Positions 6,001 through 40,242 are shown, counted from the first letter of the stretch. The stretch is 64,000 bases of DNA from Candidatus Omnitrophota bacterium (GCA_049643885.1 JBARQV010000033.1:11229-75228); one strand, 5' to 3'. Notes: generated by a model from the letters alone, not told the origin. Program-made: numbers and translations.

Positions 6001-9000
6001 GGAAAGATTCCGTGAAAAAGACCGAGCGGAGCTTACCTACTTATGTTATGAAGCATTGAAACTCATGAATTTTATCAGAGAATTGAAAGCCAGAGCCGAT
6101 TCGCTGGGGAGACCACTTGTGTTGGTTGAGAATATTACGTACGGTTGGATGGCCACAATACCCATTGAAGAGGAGATCAAAGCCATGGGTGTAAAGATCA
6201 TAAAGACCAAAGCCGGATCGACCTTTGCTCACGATAATCCGACGGTTATGCACGGCTTGAATCCTCATGGCCCGGATGATTCCAAACTTTTTAGCGAAGA
6301 AGATCTGAGATATTTCGTAGAAGAACAGCCTTTGGTGTTGGTGGTGGACGGAACTTATTCGCTTGACCCGCAAAAAATGGCGCGTTTTAGAAGAAAAGGG
6401 GCACGATATCCAGATGCCCACCAGGCTTATCGTAATTATTTCCACGCCATAAGCGGAGAGCCTAAAGATAATGATTTTGATATCGATAGATTGCGACTTG
6501 GAAGCAAGCTTAAAGAAGATAATGTTTATAAGGCAGTAAGGAGAAGTGCCGAAGACATCAAGCCGGCGCCCGAAAGGGGTAATTACCAGATGAGATTCTG
6601 GTATCCGGGAAAGAAGTCACTTGGATTAAATAGCCAGAGAAAATCAAGAAAACTTTCAAGCCAATTAGATCTTATCAATTCTAAAAATACGGACGAACCT
6701 CTTTTAGATAAAATCAGCGGTCCGACATTAATTTTTTCTGTGGCTAACATGGAAGATGAGGCCATACCCGATAGTGTCAGGCAGGGGGGGATATATCATA
6801 ATTCCGCGCATTTTGACGACAAAGAACCCTTTGGGAGAACGTTTATTGATGTTACACCTTACGGTCCGAAGATCTCGAATGAATTTCAAAATGCAGCCAT
6901 CGCGGAATACAAGCGATTAAGCCAGCAATTAGGAGTTGTGCCGCCCCTTGCCCCGCCTGCCGTGATGGCGAGGGAAAGCCGCTGGGCCCAGTATGCGGCA
7001 CCTATGGCCGGCGGCGTTCTGGGTTTTCTCACGGTATTTTTATTCGGCTCGGCATTGTTGCCGGGCATATTGAGCGTCTTGCTTTTATCAGCGTATTTTC
7101 CGCTTGCGAGGCAAACGGCCCTGGCGCGTGAAGTTGCCGGTGAAACGGGCGTCGCCGCTAGGCCCGTGGATACGTTCGGGGATATTCTTGGCAACTTCGG
7201 GCCTATTATCGGTCCCTTGGTGTGGCTCCATGAATTTGTTCACCGCCTTACCGGCGTGTTGGGCGTAAAAAGGCTAGGCATATTTAGCAGATTTATGGAC
7301 GAGGCAATGGCTTATTCGGTCGAATCGGTATTCGCCATGCCTGTAGTTGCTGTTTCTTCGATCGTGTATGGGTTAGTCATGCTTTTCATGCCCCCCAGGG
7401 GCGAAGAAGCCCGCGCCCCGCCTGCCGAACCGGGGATAGATTTCGAGGGCGAGTGGTTGACTGTGCCCATGATCGCTGAACGTCTTGAAGAAGAGCCACA
7501 ACTTACAATTGCAATATGGGAAATGCTCACACCGGAACTTAGGAAAGCTGTTGAGAGCCTGCTTAGTGAAGAGAGGAAAAGGCTGGTTAAGATCCGACTT
7601 TTTATTTATGAACACCTGGCTGAACTCCAAAGCAAGGAAGTTTCGAGTGATCTCGAAGATAGAAAGAACAGCGCAAGTTTACTAGAGCGGCAAAGAAAAG
7701 TTTTTGAGATCGGACGAAAGGGATTTGAAGCTCATGGAGTAGAGCATGGTTTAAATGTTTTTCTACAGATCATGCTGGATGGGCTCATCCGGAATGAATT
7801 TAAGGGCCCGCTAAATATGGGACCAAAAGAGTTCTTTGCCGGTCCTTACGGACCGCATTATATCGTTCTTGATCCGCGCAGTGTCAAAAAACCGGGCTTC
7901 GAATGGCAAGAGAGGCAGAACCATTTATTATATCTTGTTCCAAACGGGTCGGACTACAGGTTACTAATAAGCTTGGTAGATAAAGCACGTGATGAAGGGA
8001 TCATTAAACCGGAAGACGCCGGATTCATAAAGAACAGGATAACGACTTATGACATGTTCATTGCAATGACTAAAGAGGTTTCTGTTCCGGAGGAAGTACC
8101 GGCTACAACAGCAGCTGTTGAGGTTCCTGTTGCAGAGGAAGCGGCTGTTACTACGGTATTTGTTGAGGCCCCTGCCATTGCGCCTGCTGAGGTTATACCC
8201 GAGGAAGAAGTTCTTCCCGAGGCGCAGAGGGTATACTCAGCGGCGAGGGATCTTATTCCGGTGCTCCTGGATCTTATAAGGAGAAATTCACCGACTTACC
8301 TTGTAGGGCCTTCTTTTCTGGAGGATCTGGCGAAAGATGAGGGACGCAACAGGAAGGTGGAAAGGGTACTGGGCAAGGAAGGCCACAGGATAGATGCCAG
8401 GTATTGCGGGTACGATCCGACGCGCGCGGATCCGGAAGAAGCCTGGTTTGAAGAACTTACAAAACCTGGTGGAATTCTTGACAGAGCACTCAAAAGGTTC
8501 GGTATAGACGTTGTGGAAAACCCAACGTCAAGAATGACCATAAGGCTTGTCAGGGGGGCGGATGAAGAAAGGAACCAGGACAGAAGAAGTAAATTAGAAG
8601 CGTTAATTGTGAAAAGGCTCATGGATATAAATCCTGTCTTGAGATCAATGCTTGAAACAATGAAAGAAGAAGATCGGAAAAACTGGTTAAGGCAGTACGT
8701 GAAGATAATAGATGTAGATGTCGAAGGTATCGAGCATGTGAATCCCGTGCTGGACCTCTTTGCCGATGCCGGGGCGATGGAGCTGGACAGGTACGAGAAA
8801 AAAGATTACAAGGACGAAGCCCCTGACGAGCTTAAGGAACGATTGGTCATACTGTTAAAGCTTTCCCTGGGCAGTCTGGTCGATTCAGAGAGAGGTGACA
8901 TACTCGAAGGCCTGACCGCGGGTAAGCTTTACGGGGTTTTAGAAAGGGTTTTTTCGGGGCTAGCGTATTTCGCGGTCAAAAGAATAGATTGGGAAAGTAT

Positions 9001-9046
9001 AAGGGACAGGATAGATGCCGAGAACGAAGTAATAAGATCGCTGTAA
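8..9046 (+). CDS. Giant multidomain protein, 5'-partial (gene continues upstream of window); 3012 aa visible. Contains TM blocks with HExxH motifs, a transglutaminase-like Cys-His-Asp core, a long alpha-helical tandem-repeat array, and a C-terminal domain shared with the next ORF
   Basis: Uninterrupted ORF of 9 kb reaching the window edge with no stop upstream; TAA at 9044-9046; strong periodic coding signal; internal paralogy to downstream ORF at 9061. Confidence 0.85.
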   Translation: MEVDGKPMQITLPSEVGNRKVLSHEIFPAWTGGFHVSFILEKTPEDIENLNKARDVSLDRIGAKIRALEEIPEQERTPETETGRMLEVLKKVQADLKARDMKDVRIFVAVSLEGEKLNAHIISGVITVPVDQLERTEVLAYSLGHESSHQFVPEVYEIDDPQVEEDKVIEVGVEVFGPMIQVSIARSPEGGYGINVTSIDINLKMDDSRAVEAVRNAFIMAWNQLEGQKARGEEIDPEYEDFVRAMLEREGLELKYEAAPGVTFLIDDAGMRVLSERTPLMVTQAFPVALAREMLVAELPETRPVVLQSLLANIASGRGMFSWFLSPLLWLLTIGSTPIHEWAHIQAIRRYGISPELLSPAQRRGEDVGTFSLIWSLIKGEVIVHKALSGVDEAHMEVHVAGVRANLRASFYFGILLGGAIAAYLSLSPLAFWPMVFLSYLTAINFISVVVEYFGRGDLAMILRESKSSVFELITRRPHLEESMLERYFYGEKRRLSRLAKRMGVNIKGFEDDIEKIRYEVAKTQVSYVIKWRAIDQSLLGDYTTPLWIAGKKDEIWQKRFNEIVSYLPRGAPIFNEIKDDQVKAKIIAEVIGEIEEAVGAARLSEREGYFHSVIGMADRSGYSEIMHARWGKEINDLYLKVKKDVAEKRRERGDLSSGYAKGMLIKEVFDSIRRNVKGDLRQAENYVKYHYVLDINQVLSDKKGVCRHMGIITAMMLEKLIQQKELDGLAFYVRRDFHAWAMYATTYGELIVLDAAQSIDGVVEQFGYLEDFARAQDPWAVLKSPASSNRERRAWARWYAKYGRDSEDLMRNPTAVRMIVERVQRQAARERAAEAEGRRDYYYGTVLTSGMGPDQLGRKDMFYMPAAVLQEIIRQGPIEEAAPQRVEPEDLVRELEPVARDVAERFRREGISPQMWNMYRRELMAKGRRRSAVFRRIHKIILDFHTSILIKEQYSRPVRHAYVRDSEALNIAIDRELATAREMLAAAPPTVVPGKGVLWFISGAIFGLMNLLGITITPARKDFVEDFIIPLLEEGGMLLVLCYWGALPYLLVRLGFAIMHARRSLIKAILGRVFLGRAPPVGEKPISQQVIEQLTIPAIASAAALLPLIALAFGVPLSPAIFGFVAGTGLFAHILGNRYVTEFKSRLQKAVLGEELGIDYEGRPAALEKVKTDYETLIRPLTNIPFDELPGATKEILFGAGVDNGLVEMSRSAGRNARDLFRSGFPVLKDAILVEGDPDRTRENLMAIASGLVRIGAASESFGHADYVFRLGLPKLIQAFGPELIREQWETFVLFGETAGKNARYLFGATLPAFRETIIVEGDVQRTRQNLLDIGNSILRVVPENDEIAEELLNNALPAVSGIIIVEGDAEKAKDNLNRIGSSVLRVLEAAGDKVRGLFRHDYPRIEAGLGAEFVKTHWEGIFRLGEAAGTAAGNFFKNGFAGFIQSFGLDFLENNWQDIVKLGEIAGKRSGYDVGNIFNRTLVGFAKIYGLEFVKDNWRDLMDIAGSTGKDAAFLLSNGFYSLEEGFGADFIKAHWKDLVEYIKTNGEYALELVKDGLPSMKEAIVVAGDEAETRQNLRAVGEALASVARAAGKQEATYVFSQHLPDIKRRFGKEFIRDCWKDMLGLGASTGKNVRYFFRYALSEFSKTIVVKEDVEKTRENLRAIGNELVKLSNAAGEHALVVFEYGIPAMIGAIAVEGNAEETAKNLDIIGSELIALALLDGEDAGRLFEYGLPALEKVLIVEQDAEKTKENLASAGKELFELAAKVTGEMRIFWRSILWSQDDIVAEGDFAQTIENLKTVGKDRVEFTNNAGMGGIAEDFFKTVFNLRSRFGLDFLPWRDVIKFGRIHFIYNLSNKVGWEFVRSYWGDLIEIGAVLGYKTGEMFNEVLPAVKSLVTPESIQDLVRWVSLGDPVDTDILKEFLALSREERADYFNTREDELARIRDGKFDIADQKHLFIGYRLILDDIRDNPTVKKDITYKEYLSYVKAGKPAKERFREKDRAELTYLCYEALKLMNFIRELKARADSLGRPLVLVENITYGWMATIPIEEEIKAMGVKIIKTKAGSTFAHDNPTVMHGLNPHGPDDSKLFSEEDLRYFVEEQPLVLVVDGTYSLDPQKMARFRRKGARYPDAHQAYRNYFHAISGEPKDNDFDIDRLRLGSKLKEDNVYKAVRRSAEDIKPAPERGNYQMRFWYPGKKSLGLNSQRKSRKLSSQLDLINSKNTDEPLLDKISGPTLIFSVANMEDEAIPDSVRQGGIYHNSAHFDDKEPFGRTFIDVTPYGPKISNEFQNAAIAEYKRLSQQLGVVPPLAPPAVMARESRWAQYAAPMAGGVLGFLTVFLFGSALLPGILSVLLLSAYFPLARQTALAREVAGETGVAARPVDTFGDILGNFGPIIGPLVWLHEFVHRLTGVLGVKRLGIFSRFMDEAMAYSVESVFAMPVVAVSSIVYGLVMLFMPPRGEEARAPPAEPGIDFEGEWLTVPMIAERLEEEPQLTIAIWEMLTPELRKAVESLLSEERKRLVKIRLFIYEHLAELQSKEVSSDLEDRKNSASLLERQRKVFEIGRKGFEAHGVEHGLNVFLQIMLDGLIRNEFKGPLNMGPKEFFAGPYGPHYIVLDPRSVKKPGFEWQERQNHLLYLVPNGSDYRLLISLVDKARDEGIIKPEDAGFIKNRITTYDMFIAMTKEVSVPEEVPATTAAVEVPVAEEAAVTTVFVEAPAIAPAEVIPEEEVLPEAQRVYSAARDLIPVLLDLIRRNSPTYLVGPSFLEDLAKDEGRNRKVERVLGKEGHRIDARYCGYDPTRADPEEAWFEELTKPGGILDRALKRFGIDVVENPTSRMTIRLVRGADEERNQDRRSKLEALIVKRLMDINPVLRSMLETMKEEDRKNWLRQYVKIIDVDVEGIEHVNPVLDLFADAGAMELDRYEKKDYKDEAPDELKERLVILLKLSLGSLVDSERGDILEGLTAGKLYGVLERVFSGLAYFAVKRIDWESIRDRIDAENEVIRSL
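2110..2280 (+). other. Transglutaminase-like cysteine-protease core (Cys-His-Asp) inside ORF 8-9046
   Basis: KGVCRHMGIITAMM...DFHAWAMYATTYGELIVLDAAQ matches the G-x-C...HAW...D signature of transglutaminase-like superfamily. Confidence 0.6.
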
Positions 9047-9060: not shown

Positions 9061-12000
9061 ATGAATTGGCTTAAGAGGGTTCACAGGGATCAAGAGATCA
9101 AGAAGCTCTTCAGCTTCCAGAGGCGGAGTCTAGCCCTTAAAGCCTGTTCAGTTATCACCTCGGTCGCGTTTTTCTTTAATATTCTTTCTTACGATATCGC
9201 CCTTTCGGGCCCCCTCCAGAAAAAACAACCGGCTACGGAAGGGCAAGCCTGGGCCATACGAGTTCCGCCGGAGTCTTCTCACGTCGGCTCCGGTGTGAAC
9301 TCAGGCCCGGGCACTCCCCAAAAGCTTACCATCAAAGGCTTTACACTGCCCGAATATCTTGGTGTGGTGACCGACAGGTTCAGTCCCCCGGCGAAGGAAC
9401 CTGATAAGATAGTGGTTTTGATACAGGACGCGCATTGTAACTATGCGGCCCAGAAAAAGATCGCCGAGATCGTCCGGCATTTCAACAAGCTCTACCGCGT
9501 GCGCGTCGTCAACATGGAAGGAGGTAAGGGCGATTATAACCTTTCGATATTCCTGGATATAGGCGACAAGAAGGTCAGGGAAGAGGTATCCGATTACTTT
9601 GTGAAAGAGGGGCAGATAAGCGGCGCTGAATACTTCGCCATAAACGATCCTTTCAGGGCCTACTTATGGGGAGTGGAAACCTCTGAACTTTACCTGGAGA
9701 ACCTTAAAGTTTACAGGGAGTCCCTTGGATACAGAGGTGAAGTCGAGTATTTCCTGGATTCGCTTACCTATATTTTGAACAATCTTAAGCGGCACATTTA
9801 TTCGAAGGAACTCTTGGATTTTGACAACGAATATTCCCGGTATAAGGCCGGCGATATCAAATTCAAGGATTACGTGAATTACCTTTTAAGCGTGGCCAAG
9901 GAGAAAAAGGTATATATCAAGAATCTCCTGCACCTGTATTTGTTATATCACTCGATAGCATGGGAAGGGGAAATAGATTTCAAGAGAGCGGATCATGAAA
10001 GGGATATCTTGATCAGCAGGCTTGAAGGCGTTCTGTCCGGGAAGGAGATGGACGAGCTTATCAACAAGACCGTAGAGTTCAGGAACAAGAGGCTTTCGCA
10101 GACCGAATTCTACGGGTATCTCCTGAAGAAGGCGGAGGAAGTGAAGCTCGACCTGGCCGATTTCCCGGAGTTCAAAAAATACCTCGGTTATATTTTCCTC
10201 TATCATGTCGTGGACAGGGCAAAAGTAATGGAGGAGATAGGCATTCTCGAAAACGCTATAAAAGGATCTCTTTACGAGAACGATAAACAGAAGGAGCTAG
10301 ACCTTCTTTCCAAGCATTTGACTCTTACAAAGAACTTTTTCGACGCCACTTTGACAAGAAGCGATTACGAATATTACGAACAGAACAAATTAGCGTTTGA
10401 AACACAGAATTACATTTCGTTTATAGAAAAAGAAGCCCCAAAGTACAAAATAACCGCCCAACTGCCTTCTGATATACAAAATCTTGATTTTCGTATGGCC
10501 GAAATGGACAAGTTCTACGAATACTCGTTCAAGAGGGACCTCGCCTTCCTCGACAACATAAAATTTAATGCGACTGAATCTCCAACATCCAACATCCAAC
10601 AACCAACATCTATTTTGATTACCGGCGGTTTCCACGCCGAAAATCTCTGTAAGTTGTTTAAAGAAAATGATATAGCATATATATGCATAATGCCGAATTT
10701 TACGAGCGAAGAAGGTTATGTTTGCCCGTATTTCGACCTCTTGGCGGGTGAAAGACCTCAAGTTGAAATGATGATCAGCGATATCATGGGCTATTCACTT
10801 GCTATAGCGAGCATACTCAGCCAGCTGGGGCCGGACGTGTATGATGAAAACGCTCGCAGGATATTCGGGCTTCATGTTCAGTGGAAACGCGCTGTGGCGG
10901 AAGGAAAAGGCGGCCTCGCGATCATGGCAGAGGATGGGAGATTCCTCGGCGCGGTCAATGCCAGGGGAGAGATCGTCCCTGAAGACAGGTCAAAAGGCTT
11001 TGAAGTGGCGCGGGTTCCGGCAGTTGTCCCGGCTATCGCTCCGGCAACTCCCGAATTGGTGGATCTATTCGGGAACTGGTTCGATCTGAATCTGGAACTT
11101 GATTATTTTAGCGGAGAGTTTGAAAGAGGTGAGGCGAAAGGGCTGGCGGCGATACAGGAAGGGGTGCAGGCCGAAAGAGGCATGTATCCCAAAGAAGAAA
11201 TAGAAGGCGGCGATTTCTATTTTGACCTGGAAGCCTTCTCTTATTTTTCAAGGGGACTTATCGACAAAGCCACTTTAGCGGAAGTCATGAGGCCTTACAG
11301 CGATAAGCTGCCCGGCCAGATAAATGTTATAGTCGTGGACAAAGGACCAAAGGCCGTAGCCAGATACGGGAACACTATAGCGATAAACCGCGCCGTGTTC
11401 GAGCTTACGCGCGGCGTCTCTCCCGTTATCCGCAATTTGATCACTATGAAACTCCTGGACACGGCCCTGAGGGCAAGCAGCGAGACCGGTATCAGGGAAG
11501 GAGAGGATCTGGGTATTTCGCTTGCAGACCTGAGAAGGGTCGGGAGCCGCGAGAAACCGGACAGGATAATGGAAGTCATACGCCAGGTATTCTCTCCAGA
11601 GTCAAAACTCGCTTCCGACGAACAGGAAGAAAATCTGATCCTGGCTTACGATTATGACCAAAAATATATTGCTCAAGGCAGTTTCAACGAAGAGATACTG
11701 AAACAGGCCATTAAAAGAGGTTTCACCACGGTCATAGTTAGATTTTTGGAAGGCGACGTCATAGGAGGACAGGTCGAGGTCATATTCGCGAACAAGTCGG
11801 ACGTGCTAGTGGAACGGATAGATATGCTTCCCGAGAATATGGATGTTCTTTTCTCGGCCGTCGGCGAGAACATGGAACCGGGCTCCGTATGGCGCTTCAC
11901 GCGGCGTTTCCTGACATACGATATTAAACGACGAGCGTTTCTCGCAAAAGAACGCCCCAGGATAATGACCTACGAATTGGAGAGAAAACTTGAAGTGTAT

Positions 12001-15000
12001 CGCGAGAGGATCGGCGACAGGGAGCTTGAAGGGCGGAATTTCGGGTATGAATACAAGATAGAACGTGACGAAGCGAGCCCTCTTGGCAGGAAGGTAAGGA
12101 TAGACCTGACAGAGAACCCCCCGGAAGGGTTTGAGAGCGCGAGGCCTGTGATCAAGGCGAAAAAATATACTTACGAGGACATCTATGAATATTTTAATTT
12201 TTATCACAAATACTGGATGCCCAAAGAAGGACACGGTGATTGGGAGCTTAGCAGGTTCCTGAGGGAGATAGTGGCCAGTGACCTCACTCCTGAAGAGAAG
12301 CGCGAAAAGATACTGGGGTTCTTCGAAGAGTTGACCCAGGGGCAGATGTATATGGATGGCAAGGGCGTGCCGGCGCCTGATAAAGACCCGCTTGAGCTCA
12401 TCAACGGGGAGATAAGGGGCACCCCGGGACGGCTTCCCTTTGAGGAAAGGCTTCTAGCAATGCTCAAATCGCCCCCCGAAGTGCCCCCTGTCACAAGACT
12501 GGCACCTGGTAAAGGTGTCCTGGATATTGTCGCAAGGGGTGTTTTCAAGGTAACCGATCCCTTTATGGCCAGGGAAGATGCTGAAGATCTTGTCGTTCCT
12601 GTTGTTGAGGAAGGTATTATGTTTCTCGCGCTTGCGCCGTATTTATGGGGCGGCGCGCCGTCTTTGGTCGTTCTTTTTGGGGCAGTACTTTATTTTCTTT
12701 TGAGGGCAGGGTTTATTGCGGCTCACGCGCTGCAGGACAGGGCGCCCCCGGGGAGAAGAAGGACGATCTTTGAACGAATTATCATCCCCGCCCTTATATC
12801 TGTTCCCGCTTTCTCACTTCCTGTTCTGGCATTATTAGGAGCTTCTCCCATAGCCCTTGGCATTGTTGCGGGCGCGGTGACACTTTTACATATGGCCGCG
12901 AACCGCTATGTTACTTTTGCAGGCTCAAAGTTACAGAAGGCTGTTCTTGGAAGAAAGGTCGAGCGGTATATCGGAGAGACGGGGACAGATGTCGAAAGGT
13001 TTAAGGTAGACATCGGGGATGACAGGGAATCGTTACAAAAGTTTATGAAGAAAGTAAAAAGTGTTTTTATGACCGAAAGGGAGGTCGCATCATTGCAAAA
13101 CGTTCTGGCGCACGGGGAGGATTCGCTTGAAAAAATGGGGAGAGTGGGCAAACTTTGGCAGGCCGTGCGTTACGGGAACGTGAGGCAGAAAAAAGCCGAT
13201 TTTCTTAGAGGATTCCTGGAAGAAATAAACAGCACCGGGACCTTTAGTGTAGGAAGGACCGAAACTTTAGAACCAAGAAGCGTAACAAGGACCAAGAGTG
13301 ACATGGAAATGATCGAAGAACAGCGTAAGGTATACGTGGAAGGAGTGGAAGAAATATTCAAGCGCGTAGAATCGGGCCAGGAATATGATACCGGGGAACT
13401 GGCTGGGTTATTCGACAGGATCATACTCAATGTCCTGACACAGTTCGGTATAAAGGATGACGTTATGGTGGTAGGCCTCGGGAGTTACGGTAGAGGAGTC
13501 GTCCCGATAGGGTCGGATTGTGATGCCGTGTTCATAGTAAGAGGCGCCTTTCCCGGGCTTGTAAAAAAAGATATACAGGAAAGGGTGGTCTGGATACTGG
13601 AACAGATCGGCCTGGACGTCGATCCGGGAGCTCTCCTGCCCGGGGACCTGAAAGATTGGCCTACCATGGACCAGCTCAGGGCGGCATTCGATGAAGGGGT
13701 CGAAAGCGGGGAGCTTGTGGGTATAAATATGCTGTTCCTCGCGGATAACAGGCTTGTTTCGGATGCCGATGAAAAGTCGATACCGGAGTTCGGGGAATAT
13801 TGCAGGATGAGAGACGAAATAATCACCGGGAAGCACCCGGCATTTATCGCTCACCTTGTCCTGGAAATAGCGAATTTCCTGAGGATAACCGGCGGAACAA
13901 CTCCGGAAGCGGCGGGACCTTCAGCGGGCCTTATAGATATATATTACAGGTACGGGGATGATAAAGAAAGAATCATGCAGGAGATCGGCAAGAAGATAAA
14001 ATCTTTATATACAGTTGAGGATGGCGAGCTGAGACTAAGCCCCTTGGGCGAAAGTGAAATACTCCGCGACATCAGACAATTCAACGTTAAACAGGATTCC
14101 GGCGGCATGAGGAGCCTTGACTTTGTTTTATGGACAGGGAGGGTCTTGAGCGGGGTGAACGACCCCGATCCTTACAAGATCATTGAGCAGTTGTCCGCCG
14201 AGTACGCGACCGGCGAAGAAAAAGAAATATTGAGGGAAACAATGGATTATTTCATCAAGTTAAGGTCCGTTATTAATTATATCTCCTCTTTGGAAAAGGC
14301 CGAGGGGACTCCCGAGTTCATCGAACATGACACTATAGATTTCAACGATATCAGCAGCATTGAGCAGATCGTCAAAGTCATGGAACCGCAGAACGAGCTG
14401 GTGCGGAAGATCATGTCATTAGAAGGACAGGAACAGGATATAGAATCCGAACTGAGGAAACTAAGCACTATAGATACCGAGGATGTAGAGGAGAAAAGAA
14501 GATTATCGGGAGAGAGGCGGTCAGTTCGGGGAGAATTGTTGAAATCACGCAAAGAATTGGCAGGTGAGTTCCGGGGAAAGGTCAATTCCATGAGGGGTAA
14601 AATAGCGGCAATCGGTTTAAAGGCACTGGATAAATATCTTGTAAGCTTTATAAGGGAAGGCAAGATAAGGGATGAAGACGCTTTGTACGTGATGGTCCCC
14701 ATCGGCCAAAGGGCTCTTCTTGACCTGAAAAGAGAACTGAAACACCGGGGAGAGTATAGAAAAGACCTTGCCAGGGTAATGCGCGAGCGATATCGCGCTT
14801 CACGGGCTGATCTCGGCAAAGGCGTCCTGGGATTTATCGCGGCAGGTGTTTACAAATTTACTGATACCGTCATGGACCTTTTTGGCCGTGAAAAGACGCC
14901 CGGCTACAGGGCTTTTGTCGAAGATTATTTTATTCCCGTTATAGAAGAAGGCGCGATGTTCCTCGTTCTACGCTCCTGGGGGACGTTGCCGTATTTTCTC

Positions 15001-18000
15001 ATCCGGCCTGGGTTCATACTGGCTCACGCGTTCCAGGACAGAGCTCCTCCCGGGAGAAGAAGGACGATCTTCGAACGGATCATCATCCCCGCCCTTATAT
15101 CAGTTCCTGCCTTTTCACTTCCTATTCTCGCGCTTTTGGGAGCATCGCCTGTAGTACTTGGAGTTGTCGTAGGTGCGGTGACACTTTTACACATGGCCGC
15201 CAACCGCTTTGTAACTCTAACAGGTTCCAGACTCCAGAAAGCCGTTCTGGGAAAGAAGTTTGTCCAGCCTCCCGTGAGAAAGGCCAGGATCATTTCAATA
15301 AGAGGAGAAAAGGTTTCAGATACGTATCCTGTTGTGCCTGTAACTGTTCGCGAGGAAGCGGAACCGGTGCCCGGAGTCGAATTTATAGCGACGGAGGAGA
15401 TACTCGATGAACTGATGACCGATTATCCCGAAAGGATCCTCAGAGACCGCGGGATGGACGCCGAACAATATTCAAGGCTCGCTGAAACAGCCGTTGTCAC
15501 GAACAAAAAACCGATCAAAGTCGATCCCAGCGGGAGGGAATGGATAGGTGAGCGGTATATCATCGGGCGGACCCCGTCGGGCGAGGATATTGAACTTGGC
15601 AGAGGCGGCGTAGCTGTTGTTTATTATGGCCTTGATACTCAAAGTGGAGATGAGATCGTTTTAAAGGTTCCTGAAGAAGAAAGAGCTGTTCCCGGTAAAG
15701 AAAAATTACCGTTTGAACTTAAGAAAATGTCATTATTACGCGAGGCGGCATTCATAGAATACGTGAAGGAGCAGGAAAAACAAGGCCGTGTGGATCTTGA
15801 GGGCGGGGTGGTAGATTTACGCGACGCAGGGGTCTACAGGGGGGCGTACCTTGATGATAAGGGGCGTCCGACCGGGAAGGAATACACCAATTATTATATA
15901 GCAATGGGTTACGTTCATGGTTTGACGCTGGGGGATCTTTTGAACCAGCGCGGTCCACTTGCGGAAGACGAAGCCAGGGCTCTTTTTGAAAGGGTATACG
16001 ATACAACAAGAAAACTCCACAAGATAGGCGTGATCCATATGGACATAAAATCGGATAACATCTTCATTCCTCTGGTCAACGGCAAGCTTGAGTTCGGGAA
16101 AGCCGTGCTGGGAGATTTCGGCTTTTCGATAAAAGTCGATAATGTCGATGGCCAGTATGTTCACGATTTCACGTACGGGACTGAAGGGTACGTACCGCCG
16201 GAGGGGGGCGTAGGTGTATTTTCAGGGAGGAACGACATGTACGCCCTGGGCATGACGCTTTATGAAATGATGACCGGCACGGTAATCGAAGATGGCGTCA
16301 AGGCGGAATTCACGCCCGACATGGAAAGTGCGCTTCCCGCCGATCTGGTCGCTGTTGTCAGATTGTTGACACAGGAAAACTGGGAAGAGTCGTCAGTTCT
16401 GGCGGAAGGCGTAACCGGGATATTGGAGAGAGGAAAAGTCGCCATAGCGGACGATGTCGTTCTTGAGGATTTTGAAGGGTTTGAACTCGAGGACATGGTC
16501 TTAAAGCTCATGAAGCCCGGTCAGAAATACTCAAGGGAGGAATTTAAAGCCGAGGTAGAGAAACTCAAGTTATTTTTAACGCGTGCGATAGGGGTCAATC
16601 TCCGGCAGATGGCCGGTGATATTTCGGAAGCGAAGTTCGGCGCCGGCAAGCGCGACGGATTCAAACGTTTCATCGTTAAAAAGATCCGGCATGCCGGGCG
16701 CGGCGATTACAAGCACGCGTTAAGGGTCGAGGCTGATACCGACCAAGGCCGGCAGGTCTTCGCGGTCAAGTTCCTGAAGCCCAAAAGGCCCGAGTATACT
16801 TTTGAGGGTTTTAAGAAAATGATAAAAACAGAATACGAAAATAGCAGGAGATTAAGTGAAACGGGTTTAGCGGCGGATTATTACGGGGAACCTTATTATG
16901 TCGGTGAACGGTTCGATGAAAAGTTCTCAAAAGGATTAGAAGAGCATGGCATCCTGGGCTTGCTTGTGGGTGAATATGTGGAAGGTACGCCTGTCAGTGA
17001 GATATACGAAAGAGATGAAAGGAAAGAAGCGTATCGCGGATTAGTGAAAGCCACGGTCCGTCTCTGGCTAGAGACTTATGATCCTGAAACGCAGGCCGGT
17101 CTTGTTTTGTATGACCTTGCCGGGAGGAATTATGTGCTTGAGGATGGAACGGGCAGAATAAAGACCATAGATCCCGCGTTTTTGGATCCGTTCAATGTTG
17201 ATTACCTGAGAGACATGATAAGCGCTCTTCTCATAGCGGAATTGGCCATGGAAAAAGAAGGTATAAGGTTCGACGCGATGCCGGGCGGCGCGGACGAGAT
17301 GTATTTCCTTTCGGCGATACCGGAGGAGATAAATGATTACCTGAGGGAAAAAGGCGATAGTTTGGACGAAAGGAAAAAGAGGGCCGTCATGGAGCTTCGT
17401 GGAGCCGAGGCGTTAAGGGACATCCAGGTAGCCGTTGAGGAAAAGATCGACCTACAAAAAGCTATTGCTGACGCGTCAGGCAGAGGCGATGTGATACGGA
17501 TGGCCGAGCTAAGCGACGGAAAAGAACTGGAAATACATGACGCTAAAGCGTTAGTGCGGGACGATGAGGAGATGTTCAAAGAACTTCTGGCGGCGGTCCA
17601 GAAGGTTGTAGCTTCTTCTTTCGGGCCTTCAAAAGCATACGGGCTTGCGGCTGAGTTGAGGATAAAGCAGATCCTCCAGGAGAACGAGGTGATGATAGCC
17701 GTTGTGGGTAACGAAGTGATCGGCTTTCTGGCATATCAGTTCAAGCCCGGGGAAGCCCGGAGTATTTTAGACTGGTTTGCCGTGATGCAGGAGCATCAGG
17801 GCAAAGGCATCGGCTCGAGGATGATGGACGAATTCATGGAGGTGTCACTGAAAGCCCGCGAGACCGGCATCGAAAAGGCCTGGTGGCATTCATGGGACGA
17901 AAAGTCAGACGATTTTTATATTGGATATTTTAGAAAAAAAGGAATAAAACCTGAACAGGTCGGACGTAATTTTACTCTTGGACTGGATGCAGTTGGCGCG

Positions 18001-19431
18001 GCAATGGCTCCTGACCACGGGGCGATAATGAGAGGGCTCAGGCCGGAGGACGTGGAAGAAGCCATAACCGGTGATGTCGACAAGAGCACGTTGTCCGAAG
18101 AGTTCAAGGCGATCGAAGAAATGCTTGACGATAGCTCATTAGAAAGGAACAGGACACTTCGCGAGCTGGCAGATAAACTGGAGATCCCATGGGATCTTAT
18201 GCTTTCAAGGATCAAAAAAGCCAGGGACGACCTTCTGAAAGGAAATAAAGCATTGAAGGAGTTTCCCGCCATTGTCCGCGGTCTCGATGAATATGCTCTT
18301 GGCATGGCCACGGAAGACAAAATAACTTACAGCACAGAGATCCTCGCGATGTTACCCGCGCCCTTGAGAGCCGAATATGTCCTGCACGAAGCGATCTGTT
18401 ATTATTTCCCGGGATTGGAGGGGCACCAGACCGCCAGGCAGATACAGATGGTCCTGTTCCCGCGGAATTACGGGAACCTGACGCCTGAAGAAAGAGAAGA
18501 ACTTGAGGGGACAGAGGCGCTGACAGGTGACTTAACGTTGTTTTTAAGCGCATTTATCGATGTAACGGCCCCGCCGCTTGAAGGCCCGCCGGCTGAAAGA
18601 AAAGCGCAGGAGATCTACGCCCAGGCCAGGATGCTGGCCCCGGCGCTTGCCGATGCCGTAAGGCGGGGCGCGCCGACGTATGACATAGGGCCGTCATTTT
18701 TCAGGGACATGGCCCGGGACGAGCAATGCAATAAGGAAGTAGCGAGGATACTCGGCAAAAAAGGCCACAATATTTACGCCAGGCATTGCGCGTTCGACCC
18801 CACGAAAGATACTGCCGCGAAATGGTTCGAAAATATGGTCGAAGACAGGCCCGGGGGAGTCCTTTACGACATGCTGGAGACTTTCAGCCGGGACGCCTCA
18901 GTAGACCCAAGGACCAGGATGACTATCAGGCTTATAAGAGGGCCGGATGAAGCAGGGAACAAGGCAAGAAGAAAAGATATGGAAGGTTTTATTTTAAGGA
19001 ACCTTAAGCTCATGAATCCCGATCTGGCAGAGAGACTGGAGACGATGAGCGAGGCCGAAAGAAATGAGTGGTTCAACAAACATGTGAAGGTATTGGACGT
19101 GGATGTCGGGAATATTGAACACGTCAACCCTGTGCTGGATCTTATTACGGACATCGGCGTCATGGAGCTTGACCGCTACGCGAAGCACGATTACGAAGGT
19201 AAAGCTCCGCGGGACCTTGAGGAGAACCTTGTCAGACTATTGAACCTTTCGATAGGGAGTTTTGTGAATATCGATACGAAACAGGCGCTTAAAAAGGTCT
19301 CCCGTAAAGATCTATACAGGGTTTTAGCAGCCCTTTTTACGGGAAATATGTACATTATGGTAAGGAAGATCGACTGGGGCAGCATAAGGGAGAAGATCAG
19401 GGCCCAGAATGCTGTCCTTAAATCGTTGTAA
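9061..19431 (+). CDS. Giant multidomain protein (3456 aa): N-terminal signal/anchor + conserved 'QDAHCN' module, two polytopic TM modules, GlnE/GlnD-like nucleotidyltransferase, Hanks-type Ser/Thr kinase, second atypical kinase-like fold, GNAT acetyltransferase-like segment, conserved C-terminal domain
   Basis: ATG at 9061 preceded by GAGGT 6 nt upstream; 14 nt after stop of upstream ORF; 10.4 kb uninterrupted ORF; multiple recognisable catalytic motifs in-frame. Confidence 0.9.
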   Translation: MNWLKRVHRDQEIKKLFSFQRRSLALKACSVITSVAFFFNILSYDIALSGPLQKKQPATEGQAWAIRVPPESSHVGSGVNSGPGTPQKLTIKGFTLPEYLGVVTDRFSPPAKEPDKIVVLIQDAHCNYAAQKKIAEIVRHFNKLYRVRVVNMEGGKGDYNLSIFLDIGDKKVREEVSDYFVKEGQISGAEYFAINDPFRAYLWGVETSELYLENLKVYRESLGYRGEVEYFLDSLTYILNNLKRHIYSKELLDFDNEYSRYKAGDIKFKDYVNYLLSVAKEKKVYIKNLLHLYLLYHSIAWEGEIDFKRADHERDILISRLEGVLSGKEMDELINKTVEFRNKRLSQTEFYGYLLKKAEEVKLDLADFPEFKKYLGYIFLYHVVDRAKVMEEIGILENAIKGSLYENDKQKELDLLSKHLTLTKNFFDATLTRSDYEYYEQNKLAFETQNYISFIEKEAPKYKITAQLPSDIQNLDFRMAEMDKFYEYSFKRDLAFLDNIKFNATESPTSNIQQPTSILITGGFHAENLCKLFKENDIAYICIMPNFTSEEGYVCPYFDLLAGERPQVEMMISDIMGYSLAIASILSQLGPDVYDENARRIFGLHVQWKRAVAEGKGGLAIMAEDGRFLGAVNARGEIVPEDRSKGFEVARVPAVVPAIAPATPELVDLFGNWFDLNLELDYFSGEFERGEAKGLAAIQEGVQAERGMYPKEEIEGGDFYFDLEAFSYFSRGLIDKATLAEVMRPYSDKLPGQINVIVVDKGPKAVARYGNTIAINRAVFELTRGVSPVIRNLITMKLLDTALRASSETGIREGEDLGISLADLRRVGSREKPDRIMEVIRQVFSPESKLASDEQEENLILAYDYDQKYIAQGSFNEEILKQAIKRGFTTVIVRFLEGDVIGGQVEVIFANKSDVLVERIDMLPENMDVLFSAVGENMEPGSVWRFTRRFLTYDIKRRAFLAKERPRIMTYELERKLEVYRERIGDRELEGRNFGYEYKIERDEASPLGRKVRIDLTENPPEGFESARPVIKAKKYTYEDIYEYFNFYHKYWMPKEGHGDWELSRFLREIVASDLTPEEKREKILGFFEELTQGQMYMDGKGVPAPDKDPLELINGEIRGTPGRLPFEERLLAMLKSPPEVPPVTRLAPGKGVLDIVARGVFKVTDPFMAREDAEDLVVPVVEEGIMFLALAPYLWGGAPSLVVLFGAVLYFLLRAGFIAAHALQDRAPPGRRRTIFERIIIPALISVPAFSLPVLALLGASPIALGIVAGAVTLLHMAANRYVTFAGSKLQKAVLGRKVERYIGETGTDVERFKVDIGDDRESLQKFMKKVKSVFMTEREVASLQNVLAHGEDSLEKMGRVGKLWQAVRYGNVRQKKADFLRGFLEEINSTGTFSVGRTETLEPRSVTRTKSDMEMIEEQRKVYVEGVEEIFKRVESGQEYDTGELAGLFDRIILNVLTQFGIKDDVMVVGLGSYGRGVVPIGSDCDAVFIVRGAFPGLVKKDIQERVVWILEQIGLDVDPGALLPGDLKDWPTMDQLRAAFDEGVESGELVGINMLFLADNRLVSDADEKSIPEFGEYCRMRDEIITGKHPAFIAHLVLEIANFLRITGGTTPEAAGPSAGLIDIYYRYGDDKERIMQEIGKKIKSLYTVEDGELRLSPLGESEILRDIRQFNVKQDSGGMRSLDFVLWTGRVLSGVNDPDPYKIIEQLSAEYATGEEKEILRETMDYFIKLRSVINYISSLEKAEGTPEFIEHDTIDFNDISSIEQIVKVMEPQNELVRKIMSLEGQEQDIESELRKLSTIDTEDVEEKRRLSGERRSVRGELLKSRKELAGEFRGKVNSMRGKIAAIGLKALDKYLVSFIREGKIRDEDALYVMVPIGQRALLDLKRELKHRGEYRKDLARVMRERYRASRADLGKGVLGFIAAGVYKFTDTVMDLFGREKTPGYRAFVEDYFIPVIEEGAMFLVLRSWGTLPYFLIRPGFILAHAFQDRAPPGRRRTIFERIIIPALISVPAFSLPILALLGASPVVLGVVVGAVTLLHMAANRFVTLTGSRLQKAVLGKKFVQPPVRKARIISIRGEKVSDTYPVVPVTVREEAEPVPGVEFIATEEILDELMTDYPERILRDRGMDAEQYSRLAETAVVTNKKPIKVDPSGREWIGERYIIGRTPSGEDIELGRGGVAVVYYGLDTQSGDEIVLKVPEEERAVPGKEKLPFELKKMSLLREAAFIEYVKEQEKQGRVDLEGGVVDLRDAGVYRGAYLDDKGRPTGKEYTNYYIAMGYVHGLTLGDLLNQRGPLAEDEARALFERVYDTTRKLHKIGVIHMDIKSDNIFIPLVNGKLEFGKAVLGDFGFSIKVDNVDGQYVHDFTYGTEGYVPPEGGVGVFSGRNDMYALGMTLYEMMTGTVIEDGVKAEFTPDMESALPADLVAVVRLLTQENWEESSVLAEGVTGILERGKVAIADDVVLEDFEGFELEDMVLKLMKPGQKYSREEFKAEVEKLKLFLTRAIGVNLRQMAGDISEAKFGAGKRDGFKRFIVKKIRHAGRGDYKHALRVEADTDQGRQVFAVKFLKPKRPEYTFEGFKKMIKTEYENSRRLSETGLAADYYGEPYYVGERFDEKFSKGLEEHGILGLLVGEYVEGTPVSEIYERDERKEAYRGLVKATVRLWLETYDPETQAGLVLYDLAGRNYVLEDGTGRIKTIDPAFLDPFNVDYLRDMISALLIAELAMEKEGIRFDAMPGGADEMYFLSAIPEEINDYLREKGDSLDERKKRAVMELRGAEALRDIQVAVEEKIDLQKAIADASGRGDVIRMAELSDGKELEIHDAKALVRDDEEMFKELLAAVQKVVASSFGPSKAYGLAAELRIKQILQENEVMIAVVGNEVIGFLAYQFKPGEARSILDWFAVMQEHQGKGIGSRMMDEFMEVSLKARETGIEKAWWHSWDEKSDDFYIGYFRKKGIKPEQVGRNFTLGLDAVGAAMAPDHGAIMRGLRPEDVEEAITGDVDKSTLSEEFKAIEEMLDDSSLERNRTLRELADKLEIPWDLMLSRIKKARDDLLKGNKALKEFPAIVRGLDEYALGMATEDKITYSTEILAMLPAPLRAEYVLHEAICYYFPGLEGHQTARQIQMVLFPRNYGNLTPEEREELEGTEALTGDLTLFLSAFIDVTAPPLEGPPAERKAQEIYAQARMLAPALADAVRRGAPTYDIGPSFFRDMARDEQCNKEVARILGKKGHNIYARHCAFDPTKDTAAKWFENMVEDRPGGVLYDMLETFSRDASVDPRTRMTIRLIRGPDEAGNKARRKDMEGFILRNLKLMNPDLAERLETMSEAERNEWFNKHVKVLDVDVGNIEHVNPVLDLITDIGVMELDRYAKHDYEGKAPRDLEENLVRLLNLSIGSFVNIDTKQALKKVSRKDLYRVLAALFTGNMYIMVRKIDWGSIREKIRAQNAVLKSL
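13390..14290 (+). other. GlnE/GlnD-type nucleotidyltransferase domain inside ORF 9061-19431
   Basis: VVGLGSYGRGVVPIGSDCDAVFIV matches hG[GS]...[DE]h[DE]h nucleotidyltransferase motif with downstream helical domain typical of GlnE/GlnD-like enzymes. Confidence 0.55.
15550..16300 (+). other. Hanks-type Ser/Thr protein kinase domain inside ORF 9061-19431
   Basis: GRGGVAVVYYG (Gly loop), IVLKV (VAIK), HMDIKSDNIF (catalytic loop), GDFGFS (DFG), GYVPPE (APE), DMYALGMTLYEMMTG. Confidence 0.75.
17600..17900 (+). other. GNAT acetyltransferase-like segment inside ORF 9061-19431
   Basis: IGFLAYQF...FAVMQEHQGKGIGSRMMDEF resembles GNAT motif A (Q/R-x-x-G-x-G/A) with preceding beta-strands. Confidence 0.5.
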
Positions 19432-19446
19432 TATAAGAGGTGTGTG

Positions 19447-29262: not shown

Positions 29263-29484
29263 TAGAGAAGTTAGTATTTCAAAAAGCAAGCTCAATTAAT
29301 TTGTATTCCTTATATATTAGGTGTAAACTAAAATTAGGGTACATATATCTAGCTTGGCGTATAGATAACCGTAAGCTTGGACTTAGGTTAGAGGATATGT
29401 CTGGTCTAGGTTGTGTGCCTTTTTTATAGGCTAAATAGTAAATAGTTTTGAAAAGTATTAATACAATTGTTTGCGAGGTGCGTC

Positions 29485-39800: not shown

Positions 39801-40192
39801 GGAAAGCCGCGGATGACGGTCTGAACCCGCAGATCTTTATTTTCGCGCATGAAGGTATCTCGAATGCAGATATTAACGCTTTAAGGGCGGCTGACGGCGT
39901 TGCCGGAGCCATAAAGTTCGGCAGGGTGGATCCTGCCAACCCGCTTGAGGTCGACCTGATCGCGCTACTTGGAGCTGACCTGGTCCAGGCGATCAGGAAT
40001 AAGGATGAAGAACTGGCCAGGACAGCGGGAGCGTTGATGGAATACATGTCGGGCGGCCTGGTCGAAGTGAGGAACCTGGAGGACCTGAAAAAATTCATGG
40101 AGCAATATGAAATCTTTAAGATAAAAGCGATAGATTACGGGGAAATAACCGAGTTTGCCAAGTCTCGGATGGAGGTACTCCGCTCCCTCTAA
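36881..40192 (+). CDS. Large protein (1103 aa) with signal peptide + conserved 'QDAHCN' module and a unique C-terminal half ending in the family C-terminal tail (...EVLRSL)
   Basis: ATG 36881 with AAAGGGGG RBS; 3.3 kb ORF; N-module paralogy; followed by intrinsic terminator. Confidence 0.9.
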   Translation: MKKITTIVVFFMFLACFVLTDARSVVDIDAPYDVPEVGELQLARLDVDTFTIPAHLGEIKYKFKGDPRKVVIHIQDAHCNHFAQKKIADIIDYLNREYGIKTVNLEGGVEEYDLSVFTSITGKAIRQEVANHFLKKGEINGAEFFAVNNPDKVQLWGVEDKDLYLANLKVYRDSLAHKEEVDEYMKGITHVINNLKLHIYDGELLKMDMNYNAYKEKNMQFREYLEFLLKKAQFHEIDMTKYQNLNLLEKSIEQEEAIDFETASNERKTLIDELKKNVSKADLRNIVQMTVDYKTKRITPKAFYTYLLDKAKDEGIDVNRFPVLAGYIEYVSTFESVDRFKIMKELDDMEAEIKKDIYQNNTQKELDTLSRNLVIMKNIFDIRLNKTDYDYYLENEDSFDAINFLEFIDREAPRYRITARPDPEVTRLDVYREDLSQFFEFSFQRDEVFLRNMKYSRVADGIQAAILMTGGFHTENLCVLLQEDNISYVSILPRFTMDRGYVSPYFDILAGDSTGIQEVLRSVFAQQAAMLQVPAKMSPKIAGFVFSATELAAFRASVQLTAMMLMEAGDRGMQTGQVMKVPIVDEEDREQAAIYARVTMREGRAVGIDLVEEEVTPDVEMKVTIDELNELSLPRPAAPRVPEGAAVAEGRRGLKEDRYPRSEESLREMVRTGEARLAEDVDLAAVKAGANEVLRGEIGAELASLIEDLRGKNPDDTVMLGKVIGRRDMRRPYTVKDVLDRLRGRGFTISEDDPIGDLEELQRRIAAAEMGDVRFYTASLGDTIYAQSYRDEAGVTHIILNSDRGIAGKYLRDREVLARLGAHERLEADKANLGLDHAMVEHLEVIANGYSGMTPLSGFILDKEVARFEDLDDIGEIHDSDPDGSFYMGNYLQRQIYLARDMLGHTDPKGPPVDEILEISEEEMLRIRPQYERIGNAAGRYFTLTYGPRLRLHLCVTGQAAAVREEIAGSKDFRKAADDGLNPQIFIFAHEGISNADINALRAADGVAGAIKFGRVDPANPLEVDLIALLGADLVQAIRNKDEELARTAGALMEYMSGGLVEVRNLEDLKKFMEQYEIFKIKAIDYGEITEFAKSRMEVLRSL

Positions 40193-40242
40193 TACAAACC
40201 CACGGCTGAATGAAGCTTGGTGTTTAGAAGTACCTCCGGGAA

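Follow-up and report, generated by a model that had tools for sequence, protein, structure and literature searches.

A very divergent GlnD/GlnE-type nucleotidyltransferase module between twin, probably CPBP/Rce1-like membrane modules in a giant protein of an Omnitrophota bacterium

Introduction

Nucleotidyltransferases (NTases) of the GlnD and GlnE type combine a polymerase-beta-like catalytic core with a helical domain which, in GlnD and GlnE as well as in DrrA, holds both the nucleotide and the protein substrate. Mutagenesis of GlnD has shown that the residues of its G-G and D-x-D elements are needed for uridylyl transfer. The architecture of these enzymes differs considerably. GlnD carries additional HD (uridylyl-removing) and ACT (glutamine-sensing) domains, and GlnE consists of two tandem NTase modules, a removase (AR) and a transferase (AT), together with a regulatory linker. 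DrrA/SidM, a soluble substrate of a type IV secretion system restricted to Legionella, harbours a single GlnE-like NTase module which, with no removal domain at its side, is fused to unrelated domains. The two modules of GlnE are distinguished by Gly697 in the AT form versus Asn169 in the AR form, and DrrA shares the fold and most catalytic residues of the glutamine synthetase adenylyltransferase without significant sequence similarity (PMC4454073). Here we describe a very divergent module of this class which is encoded in a stretch of 64,000 nucleotides from Candidatus Omnitrophota bacterium (GCA_049643885.1, JBARQV010000033.1:11229-75228), in the following referred to as the window. It is part of the mosaic giant membrane protein encoded by the second open reading frame (ORF2) of the window, where it is flanked by two homologous membrane modules and followed by a protein kinase and a GNAT acetyltransferase domain.

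Giant and very long proteins of Omnitrophota have been described as membrane-associated multi-enzyme mosaics, with GNAT, histidine-kinase-type ATPase and HD domains among their parts, and the question has been raised whether these proteins are cleaved (10.1101/2023.11.21.568195; 10.64898/2026.06.07.730766). The main texts of both studies make no mention of GlnD-type transferases, PF08335 or CAAX/CPBP/Rce1 proteins. Mosaic multi-enzyme giants as such are thus already known from this phylum.

Homology of the module to GlnD and GlnE

Using residues 1374-1840 of ORF2 as a query, we searched 1.84 billion representative proteins with phmmer at an expectation value (E) of at most 1e-3. This yielded five matches in all, and in five out of five both halves of the query, the NTase half as well as the helical half, are aligned. 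The closest relative (P0001, E = 7e-11) is a stand-alone protein of 416 residues which passes the Pfam model GlnD_UR_UTase (PF08335) and whose gene has housekeeping genes as neighbours on a contig of 194 kb. Also among the matches is a bona fide GlnD (P0004, E = 9.3e-5) comprising NTP_transf_2, GlnD_UR_UTase (1e-40), HD and ACT domains. The other three (P0002, P0003 and P0005) are themselves giants of 2277 to 2569 residues which share the type of N-terminal domain found in ORF2. Their internal modules pass PF08335, the NTase halves of P0002 and P0005 also pass the DUF294 model PF03445, and all three run colinear with NCBIfam GlnD models over profile positions ~12-272 (E ~1e-12).

For profile comparisons the window sequence was aligned with all five relatives (alignment A1), to the nearest of which it is 22-26% identical, and with the four non-GlnD relatives (alignment A3), the latter being built in the absence of any GlnD to avoid circularity. 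Compared to GlnD P0004 by hhalign, A3 gives a probability of 97.6% and an E of 3.5e-12 over 238 columns corresponding to GlnD residues 10-252. The same profile matches the crystal structure of the adenylylation domain of E. coli GlnE (3k7d) with an E of 1.2e-4 and 1v4a with 4.6e-3; upon inclusion of GlnD (A1) these values become 1.3e-7 and 5e-4, respectively. Significant similarity to bona fide members of the class, namely GlnD P0004 and GlnE 3k7d, hence extends over both domains. On the grounds of these sequence comparisons, the assignment of the module to the GlnD/GlnE-type polymerase-beta-like NTases with a helical substrate-binding domain, which the initial annotation had proposed, is supported, the signature residues being conserved.

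Of the family models which the initial annotation had named for a scan, GlnD_UR_UTase scores 18.0 bits on residues 1673-1742 versus a cut-off of 21 (E = 0.003) and NTP_transf_2 aligns with the strand carrying the GS and DxD elements at an E of 0.1, both below threshold, and DUF294 gives no match; it is the relatives of the window sequence which pass PF08335 and DUF294. NCBIfam GlnD models match residues 1414-1521 with E values between 8e-4 and 0.03. The sub-threshold Pfam and NCBIfam matches are independent of each other and colinear, and they fall on the two adjoining N-terminal domains of one and the same enzyme. Neither a phmmer search of the window segment against the sequences of the Protein Data Bank (PDB) nor a genome scan with the NTase segment led to any match.

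Conservation of the core and of the helical domain

The catalytic core of the module contains the G-S turn and the D-x-D motif typical of polymerase-beta-like NTases, Gly1474-Ser1475 and Asp1486-Cys-Asp1488, within the sequence GSYGRGVVPIGSDCD (residues 1474-1488). Both elements are invariant in A1 and A3, and the spacing of 12 residues from the glycine to the aspartate is the same as in the aligned GlnD P0004. In addition, Arg1478, Asp1521, Asp1562 and Arg1564 are invariant across the relatives. Asp1521 is preserved throughout the five-member clade and, as judged from the alignment, corresponds to the aspartate of the GlnE segment EVDARLRP; its position would be that at which the third metal ligand of polymerase-beta-like transferases is expected. 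In the helical half, Lys1677, Gly1681, Arg1684, Trp1691, Arg1694 and Arg1735 do not vary, and the helical signature N-h-K-x3-GG-x-R ... W..R of PF08335 is present as FNVKQDSGGMRSLDFVLWTGR.

All strings quoted in the initial annotation were retrieved from the ORF2 product at their given places, i.e. VVGLGSYGRGVVPIGSDCDAVFIV at residues 1470-1493 (nucleotides 13468-13539), IYYRYGD at residues 1627-1633 and DYFIKLRSVINYIS at residues 1729-1742. Two of these had been taken as evidence of a GlnE/GlnD-like helical region. This is correct for DYFIKLRSVINYIS, which lies inside the GlnD_UR_UTase match and is part of its conserved last helix. IYYRYGD, in contrast, is not a family feature since it falls within an insertion of about 60-70 residues in the helical domain which, according to A1, is absent from five out of five relatives.

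Taken by itself, the NTase motif does not exceed what is expected by chance, because in shuffled ORF2 sequences the strict pattern GS-x(9-13)-D-x-D is expected 0.27 times and the loose pattern G[SG]...[DE]x[DE] about four times. These numbers, along with the fact that no curated family threshold is passed, are what could be put forward for a fortuitous motif in a long ORF devoid of any NTase domain. We attribute virtually no likelihood to this explanation, which is refuted by the E values of the matches to GlnD (9.3e-5) and P0001 (7e-11), each comprising two colinear stretches, by the hhalign result (3.5e-12) and by the matches to GlnE structures in the PDB.

Structure prediction adds comparatively little. 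The AlphaFold2 model obtained from the single sequence reaches a predicted local distance difference test score (pLDDT) of 36.6, and the one based on the six-sequence alignment is poor overall (pLDDT 49.6, predicted template modelling score 0.47), with values of 60-87 in its N-terminal half. The order of elements predicted there (helices, strand, GS loop, strand with DxD, helix, strand with Asp) fits the NTase fold. When the poor model was submitted to Foldseek, GlnE (3k7d) came out on top, followed by DrrA (6yx5, E = 0.088), with E values of 0.05-0.09 which are not significant. The fold evidence for an NTase is therefore only suggestive.

As the core motif is generic, we also considered NTases of another kind, that is to say a small-molecule (aminoglycoside/kanamycin) NTase, a nucleic-acid 3'-end transferase, a cGAS/DncV-like cyclase or an MNT antitoxin-like protein. 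The A1 profile does touch MNT-like, kanamycin NTase and Pol lambda chains (E 0.009-0.8), and Foldseek lists DncV, terminal uridylyltransferases (TUTases) and poly(A) polymerases (E 0.2-2). Yet the MNT, kanamycin, Pol lambda, DncV and TUTase matches cover just the GS/DxD core of 40-50 residues, whereas in its second half the module shows a specific match to the helical domain of GlnD_UR_UTase, K-x3-GG-x-R and W/R positions included, and full-length matches are obtained exclusively with GlnD and GlnE. Furthermore, PADLOC, whose matches in the window fall on the ORF2 kinase domain alone, provides no evidence of a defence system and detects neither a CD-NTase nor any other defence NTase. We consider such an affiliation improbable.

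Comparison with described members of the class

With GlnD the module shares the G-[GS]-Y-G-R...S-D-x-D signature including its spacing, the D-x-R motif and the N-V-K-x3-GG-x-R...W..R helical signature, and it is colinear with GlnD residues ~10-252. It differs from GlnD in that the Pfam scan reveals neither HD nor ACT domains in ORF2, in that the third aspartate (LDVD) occupies a position at which the aligned GlnD has Ser/His, in the 60-70-residue insertion, and in being embedded in a membrane protein of 3456 residues. The best score attained with an NCBIfam GlnD model amounts to 17.5 bits, for which the cut-off is 1010, the equivalog cut-offs of the GlnD models being of the order of 500-1000. 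An orthologue of GlnD is thus ruled out by the missing HD and ACT domains and by a score far below the equivalog cut-off.

GlnE is the closest relative of solved structure by profile (E 1.2e-4 to 1.3e-7) as well as the top Foldseek match, and its alignment with the module extends from the GS/DxD strand via the third aspartate (vDxRLRP) to the K-x-x-x-GG-I-x-D-I-E-F helix. In contrast to the tandem arrangement of GlnE, the hidden Markov model (HMM) derived from A3 detects one NTase module in ORF2 and no other anywhere in the window. The residue which tells the AT from the AR form of GlnE (Gly697 and Asn169, respectively) is a proline in the window sequence. Pfam GlnE models do not match ORF2, and owing to the single module and the lack of a GlnE family match an orthologue of GlnE was ruled out as well. 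DUF294 proteins (PF03445/PF10335), NTases with a predicted role in signal transduction, belong to the same superfamily and display the same two-domain layout, and the NTase halves of P0002 and P0005, as mentioned, pass PF03445. The window sequence differs from them in matching neither PF03445 nor PF10335 and in lacking CBS and cyclic-nucleotide-binding domains. Taken together, residues ~1405-1771 represent one module of the GlnD/GlnE/DUF294 class, albeit a very divergent one, in which a polymerase-beta-like core precedes a helical domain.

Twin membrane modules flanking the NTase

The two membrane modules which the initial annotation had recognised on either side of the NTase are indeed homologous. 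Their protein sequences are 64% identical, and a direct repeat of 267 nucleotides with 78% identity (12691-12957 and 14992-15258) is present in the DNA, its copies being exactly 2301 nucleotides (767 codons) apart. A third copy is contained in ORF1 (residues ~991-1163, nucleotides 2972-3490) and a fourth one in a giant ORF (L032) of another Omnitrophota metagenome-assembled genome (MAG), with 46-48% identity. Each copy consists of four hydrophobic helices. Helix 1 begins with an invariant P-h-h-E-E, helix 2 ends in F-x-x-x-H and helix 4 in H-x-x-x-N-R, both likewise invariant, as is a RAPP(G)RRR loop. An extra, clearly hydrophobic helix, degenerate in both ORF2 copies, precedes the module in ORF1 and L032.

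The core of CPBP/Rce1 proteins (PF02517), formed by transmembrane helices TM4-TM7, is characterised by the order and spacing of its catalytic motifs (PMC11980579). The modules of the window present EE on helix 1, FxxxH on helix 2 and HxxxN on helix 4 in the same order and at the same spacing. The FxxxH and HxxxN motifs (Phe1218...His1222 and His1277...Asn1281 in module 1, Phe1985...His1989 and His2044...Asn2048 in module 2) are invariant in the alignments A4, A6 and A8. A difference from known CPBP proteins is that the latter are free enzymes of 200-300 residues, while here a duplicated core is found inside a giant protein.

We searched the fetched Omnitrophota loci for the motif combination EExxxR/FxxxH/HxxxN and compared the hits with Pfam (cut-off for PF02517 22.4 bits). 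The full set is embedded in giant ORFs of three loci (L033, L072 and L074), with the L074 module passing the Rce1-like model at 27.5 bits and that of L033 remaining below threshold. The profile of the window-type modules (A4) matches a profile of these three modules (A5) in hhalign with 88.5% and an E of 2.7e-6. When A4 is extended by the L033 and L072 modules (A6), the L074 module is matched with 93.9% and an E of 1.6e-7 over 96 columns which include all three motifs, and hmmsearch with A6 retrieves L074 at 2e-4. A combined profile adds five further embedded modules (L024, L035, L049, L006 and L015). Of these, L049 passes the Rce1-like model (25.6 bits) and L024 and L035 reach E ~0.015, which renders Rce1-like the sole Pfam family matched by more than one of the five; weak matches to other families concern L015 (PrsW, another intramembrane protease family) and L049 (Ost5). 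Profile-level homology to accepted Rce1-like members is thus reached via stepping-stone modules. No profile link was obtained between the window-type modules and either a stand-alone CPBP protein of the same phylum (L069) or Rce1 in the PDB, and a metagenome scan with the membrane module gave no match. In view of the conserved motifs and the profile matches, we consider the assignment of the twin modules to the CPBP/Rce1-like proteins likely. As far as can be told from their sequences, Rce1-like cores equipped with the catalytic motifs recur in at least nine Omnitrophota giant ORFs.

Both modules of ORF2 are bracketed by similar short and invariant motifs, P-G-K-G-V-L upstream and L-Q-K-A-V-L-G downstream (12508-12525 and 12925-12945 for module 1, 14818-14829 and 15226-15246 for module 2). 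In the distant modules of L024 and L035 the upstream motif reads GKGVLH and the downstream one EKATLVK. Such bracketing motifs may be candidate recognition or cleavage sites.

Predicted orientation of the catalytic domains

Basic residues are concentrated in the loop between helices 2 and 3 of the membrane cores (five Lys/Arg within 17 residues) and in the tails after helix 4 (six to eight Lys/Arg), the other two inter-helix loops being short and uncharged. The positive-inside rule thus predicts a cytoplasmic location for the two ends of every four-helix core and for all three catalytic motifs, which are situated at the helix ends pointing to this side. Because the core ends would be located there, the NTase, the charged linker, the kinase and the GNAT domain are likewise placed in the cytoplasm, which is the compartment where nucleoside triphosphates (NTPs) and acetyl-CoA are available. 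The active sites of NTase, kinase, GNAT and protease-like cores would accordingly all face the same side of the membrane. In a Kyte-Doolittle scan no hydrophobic segment shows up between residues 43 and 1176 of ORF2.

The initial annotation had seen in the combination of three protein-modifying activities the logic of effector toxins. Following this idea, NTase, kinase and GNAT would be delivered into prey or host cells or act outside the producing cell on foreign proteins. Omnitrophota have been described as ultra-small and predatory or host-dependent organisms whose giant proteins were proposed to act on prey (10.1101/2023.11.21.568195), and the N-terminal signal-anchor of ORF2 suggests export of what comes after it. 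The module moreover resembles DrrA in its architecture, since it represents a single GlnE-like NTase lacking a removal domain and fused to unrelated domains; DrrA is also the second, albeit not significant, Foldseek match. Neither by sequence nor by fold, however, does the similarity to DrrA reach significance (profile versus PDB E 0.056-0.076, confined to the core; Foldseek 0.088), and, in contrast to the soluble DrrA, the ORF2 module is locked between membrane cores. Scans with Pfam, NCBIfam and PADLOC reveal no secretion, translocation or receptor-binding domain in ORF2, the presence of two multi-helix membrane cores makes a release of the enzymes unlikely unless the protein is processed, and, judging from the distribution of charges, the enzyme domains would lie at the cytoplasmic face. 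In addition, the closest relative P0001 is encoded by an ordinary stand-alone gene among housekeeping genes and looks cytoplasmic, and the GNAT and kinase-type domains of long Omnitrophota proteins have been interpreted as a regulatory module anchored in the membrane (10.64898/2026.06.07.730766). ORF2 thus appears as an integral membrane mosaic of the kind common in Omnitrophota, and the effector-toxin logic found no support in the features analysed; we regard a function of this kind as unlikely.

Predicted function of the module

Since none of the signature residues for metal and nucleotide binding has been lost, the module is predicted to be catalytically active. It would then use an NTP to attach a nucleoside monophosphate (AMP or UMP) to a hydroxyl group on a target protein. 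With the HD and ACT domains of GlnD missing as well as the second module of GlnE, it would act as a stand-alone "writer" rather than as an enzyme of nitrogen regulation. It would do so between two homologous four-helix cores, probably divergent intramembrane glutamic proteases of the CPBP/Rce1 type, with the kinase and GNAT domains located downstream. Overall, a divergent, active GlnD/GlnE-class module in a cytoplasm-facing giant membrane protein seems to us the best and a reasonably probable explanation.

Several observations weigh against this interpretation. No match of the window sequence reaches a curated Pfam or NCBIfam threshold. The GGxRD/E motif of GlnD and GlnE reads GGMRS in ORF2, and this exchange or the insertion in the helical domain could alter or even abolish function. 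As to the membrane modules, the EE pair is invariant, but the window-type modules have Phe or Leu (EEGIMF/EEGAMF) in place of the Arg of EExxxR, which their homologues in L033, L072 and L074 possess, and the window modules lack a direct match to PF02517 or to the PDB (apart from weak FieF and FA_desaturase noise). Finally, the N-terminal signal-anchor predicts export of the ensuing ~1100 residues, which conflicts with the cytoplasmic placement derived from the charge distribution, provided that both membrane modules comprise four helices.

Some of these points would also be consistent with a catalytically dead relic with a structural or binding role in a fast-evolving mosaic, namely the GGMRS sequence, the large insertion and the sub-threshold family scores, to which the low identity to the nearest relatives and the visible shuffling of modules in the giant proteins can be added. 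Against this stands, in the first place, that every residue invariant across the relatives, GlnD and GlnE is retained, including the three acidic residues and the G-S turn. In the second place, the module has persisted at a syntenic locus. The gene of P0003 (L083; GCA_028715965.1, JAQUQS010000001.1; 2478 residues) is situated directly upstream of genes for an aldo-keto reductase (56% identity to that of the window) and a divergently oriented GH1 enzyme (51%). In the window (region compared, 36881-43449) the same arrangement occurs 3' of the array of giant ORFs, with one giant gene in L083 versus six here. Since the flanking genes are only 51-56% identical, the GlnD-like module has been kept at this locus across distant genomes, in one or another giant gene, while the surrounding modules were reshuffled, which argues for selection. 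Loss of activity thus appears to us a rather poor account of the data, and we retain that of an active module.

ORF2 as a member of the Omnitrophota giant proteins

The coordinates of all features are compiled in Table 1. Downstream of the second membrane module ORF2 encodes a Hanks-type Ser/Thr kinase whose motifs are intact (glycine loop GRGGVAVV, VLKV lysine, catalytic loop HMDIKSDN, DFG and PPE) and a GNAT acetyltransferase. Both exceed the Pfam gathering score and possess their catalytic motifs, so that the co-occurrence of NTase, kinase and GNAT in one polypeptide, pointed out in the initial annotation, is established by profile evidence for the former and by Pfam for the latter two. A second kinase-like domain at residues ~2560-2760, in the region ~2530-2800 (16651-17460), suspected because of the strings AVKFLKP, LYDLAGRN and KTIDP, found no support from Pfam, NCBIfam, the PDB or a BLAST comparison with the first kinase. 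That the region is conserved is shown by tblastn, which aligns it weakly with a giant ORF in L055.

The N-terminal domain of about 550 residues shared by ORF2, ORF3, ORF5 and ORF6 (40-47% identity) has no match in Pfam, NCBIfam or the PDB. In GTDB species genomes it was confirmed by tblastn at 389 places, the best 80 of which lie in MAGs labelled Omnitrophota or, by automated binning, "uncultured Planctomycetia". It is a marker of the Omnitrophota giant-protein family, and its relatives in MAGs of the Omnitrophota type identify the host as an Omnitrophota bacterium. N-terminal hydrophobic segments equivalent to that of ORF2 are also found in ORF3 to ORF6. The C-terminal domain of about 300 residues, to which neither Pfam nor NCBIfam models correspond, is 47% identical between ORF1 and ORF2 (blastp) and also terminates the giant ORFs of L077, L040, L076 and L039 (26-31% identity, tblastn). 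With the shared N-terminal domain following a signal or anchor segment, with its transmembrane segments and its many unrelated enzyme domains and with its location in a tandem gene array, ORF2 belongs to the mosaic giant family of Omnitrophota. At 3.5 thousand residues it remains far below the class of 10-147 thousand residues on which published work has focused.

Table 1. Features of the window (positions counted from its first nucleotide; aa, amino acid residues of ORF2 unless stated otherwise).
Feature	Position	Strand	Remarks
ORF1	8-9046	+ (same strand as ORF2)	at least 3012 aa (3957 aa in database record)
ORF2	9061-19431	+	3456-aa mosaic giant membrane protein holding NTase, membrane, kinase and GNAT modules
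N-terminal hydrophobic segment, aa 24-42	9130-9186	+	Kyte-Doolittle scan; signal peptide or signal anchor, 7 Lys/Arg before
~550-aa N-terminal domain, ORF2 copy	9322-10908	+	invariant IQDAHCN, TGGFHxEN; common to ORF2/3/5/6
Membrane module 1	12496-12960	+	E1183/E1184, H1222, RAPPGRRR loop, H1277, N1281; A4 alignment/HMM
GlnD/GlnE-type NTase module, aa 1405-1771	13273-14373	+	A3 profile; N-terminal helices, NTase core, helical domain; encloses 13390-14290
NTase catalytic core	13480-13623	+	G1474-S1475, R1478, D1486-x-D1488, third acidic D1521 (LDVD)
Lineage-specific insertion, aa ~1590-1665	13828-14055	+	contains IYYRYGD (aa 1627-1633); A1 columns ~230-290
GlnD_UR_UTase-like helical core	14077-14286	+	FNVKQDSGGMRSLDFVLW ... 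DYFIKLRSVINYIS; K1677, G1681, R1684, W1691, R1694, R1735
Highly charged helical/coiled-coil linker, NTase to membrane module 2	14398-14808	+	composition; weak Pfam YabA and APG6_N matches
Membrane module 2	14809-15264	+	E1962/E1963, H1989, H2044, N2048; A4 HMM
Hanks-type Ser/Thr kinase, aa 2178-2412	15592-16296	+	Pfam Pkinase E 3.9e-24, 85.9 bits
GNAT acetyltransferase, aa 2873-2953	17677-17919	+	Acetyltransf_1 E 7.2e-9, 36.4 bits; Acetyltransf_7 E 1.1e-7; HQGKGIG acetyl-CoA motif
~300-aa C-terminal domain, ORF2	18547-19428	+	blastp, tblastn; ORF1 copy at 8161-9043
ORF3	19444-26406	same strand	2320 aa
N-terminal domain, other copies	19624-21170 (ORF3), 29500-31260 (ORF5), 37010-38510 (ORF6)		
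Further long ORFs of the tandem array	26545-29262, 29467-36831, 36881-40192	same strand	
Further giant ORF	from 56870, past the window end (64000)		at least 2377 aa

An exact copy of the ORF2 protein is encoded on contig JBARSM010000028.1 of the NCBI assembly GCA_049644745.1. In the window, ORF2 is part of a tandem array of six long ORFs on the same strand (8-40192), the first three of which are separated by 12-14 nucleotides. Its ~13,000 residues are almost free of Pfam matches except for the ORF2 kinase and GNAT domains. Ordinary housekeeping genes, namely those for an aldo-keto reductase, GH1, FabG, FabF, acyl-CoA dehydrogenase, electron transfer flavoprotein, SMC and a GGDEF protein, are located 3' of the array. 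No tRNA genes or Rfam elements were found within the 64-kb window. Nearly all 2-kb bins have a positive GC skew and a positive AT skew, and almost all long genes lie on the plus strand; the single dip in skew at 42-44 kb coincides with the GH1 gene on the minus strand.

Among the ~1 Mb of Omnitrophota loci which were fetched via the N-terminal domain, the NTase module occurs in one other ORF (L023, 1212-8954), apparently that of P0005. Here, a full module (residues ~1703-2040) is followed by a second, partial NTase core (residues ~2121-2199), which hints that in some members the modules may be arranged in tandem like those of GlnE. P0003 has an intramembrane-protease-like element of another kind upstream of its NTase, the sequence HEVGH, which is located in a hydrophobic stretch and accompanied by a weak Peptidase_M50 match.

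Conclusions

With no more than five relatives recovered from 1.84 billion representative proteins, the module constitutes a rare and very divergent branch of the GlnD/GlnE superfamily, and about 370 residues so far annotated as "hypothetical" can be assigned with confidence. It would add protein nucleotidylylation, i.e. the predicted tagging of proteins with AMP or UMP, to the activities encoded on the giant mosaics of Omnitrophota. Beyond that, ORF2 could conceivably be a self-processing polyprotein whose CPBP-like cores cut at the conserved K-[GA]-V-L motifs flanking each of them and thereby free a GlnD/DrrA-like NTase and a kinase-GNAT fragment, which would subsequently work as independent enzymes and might possibly act on prey or host cells. 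We judge this scenario to be very doubtful. If it were true, embedded intramembrane proteases, CPBP-like in the present case and M50-like in P0003, would provide a general answer to the question of whether the giant proteins of Omnitrophota are cleaved into functional pieces. The recurring CPBP/Rce1-like cores offer a testable handle on the processing of Omnitrophota giant proteins and, in this respect, may matter more than the NTase itself.

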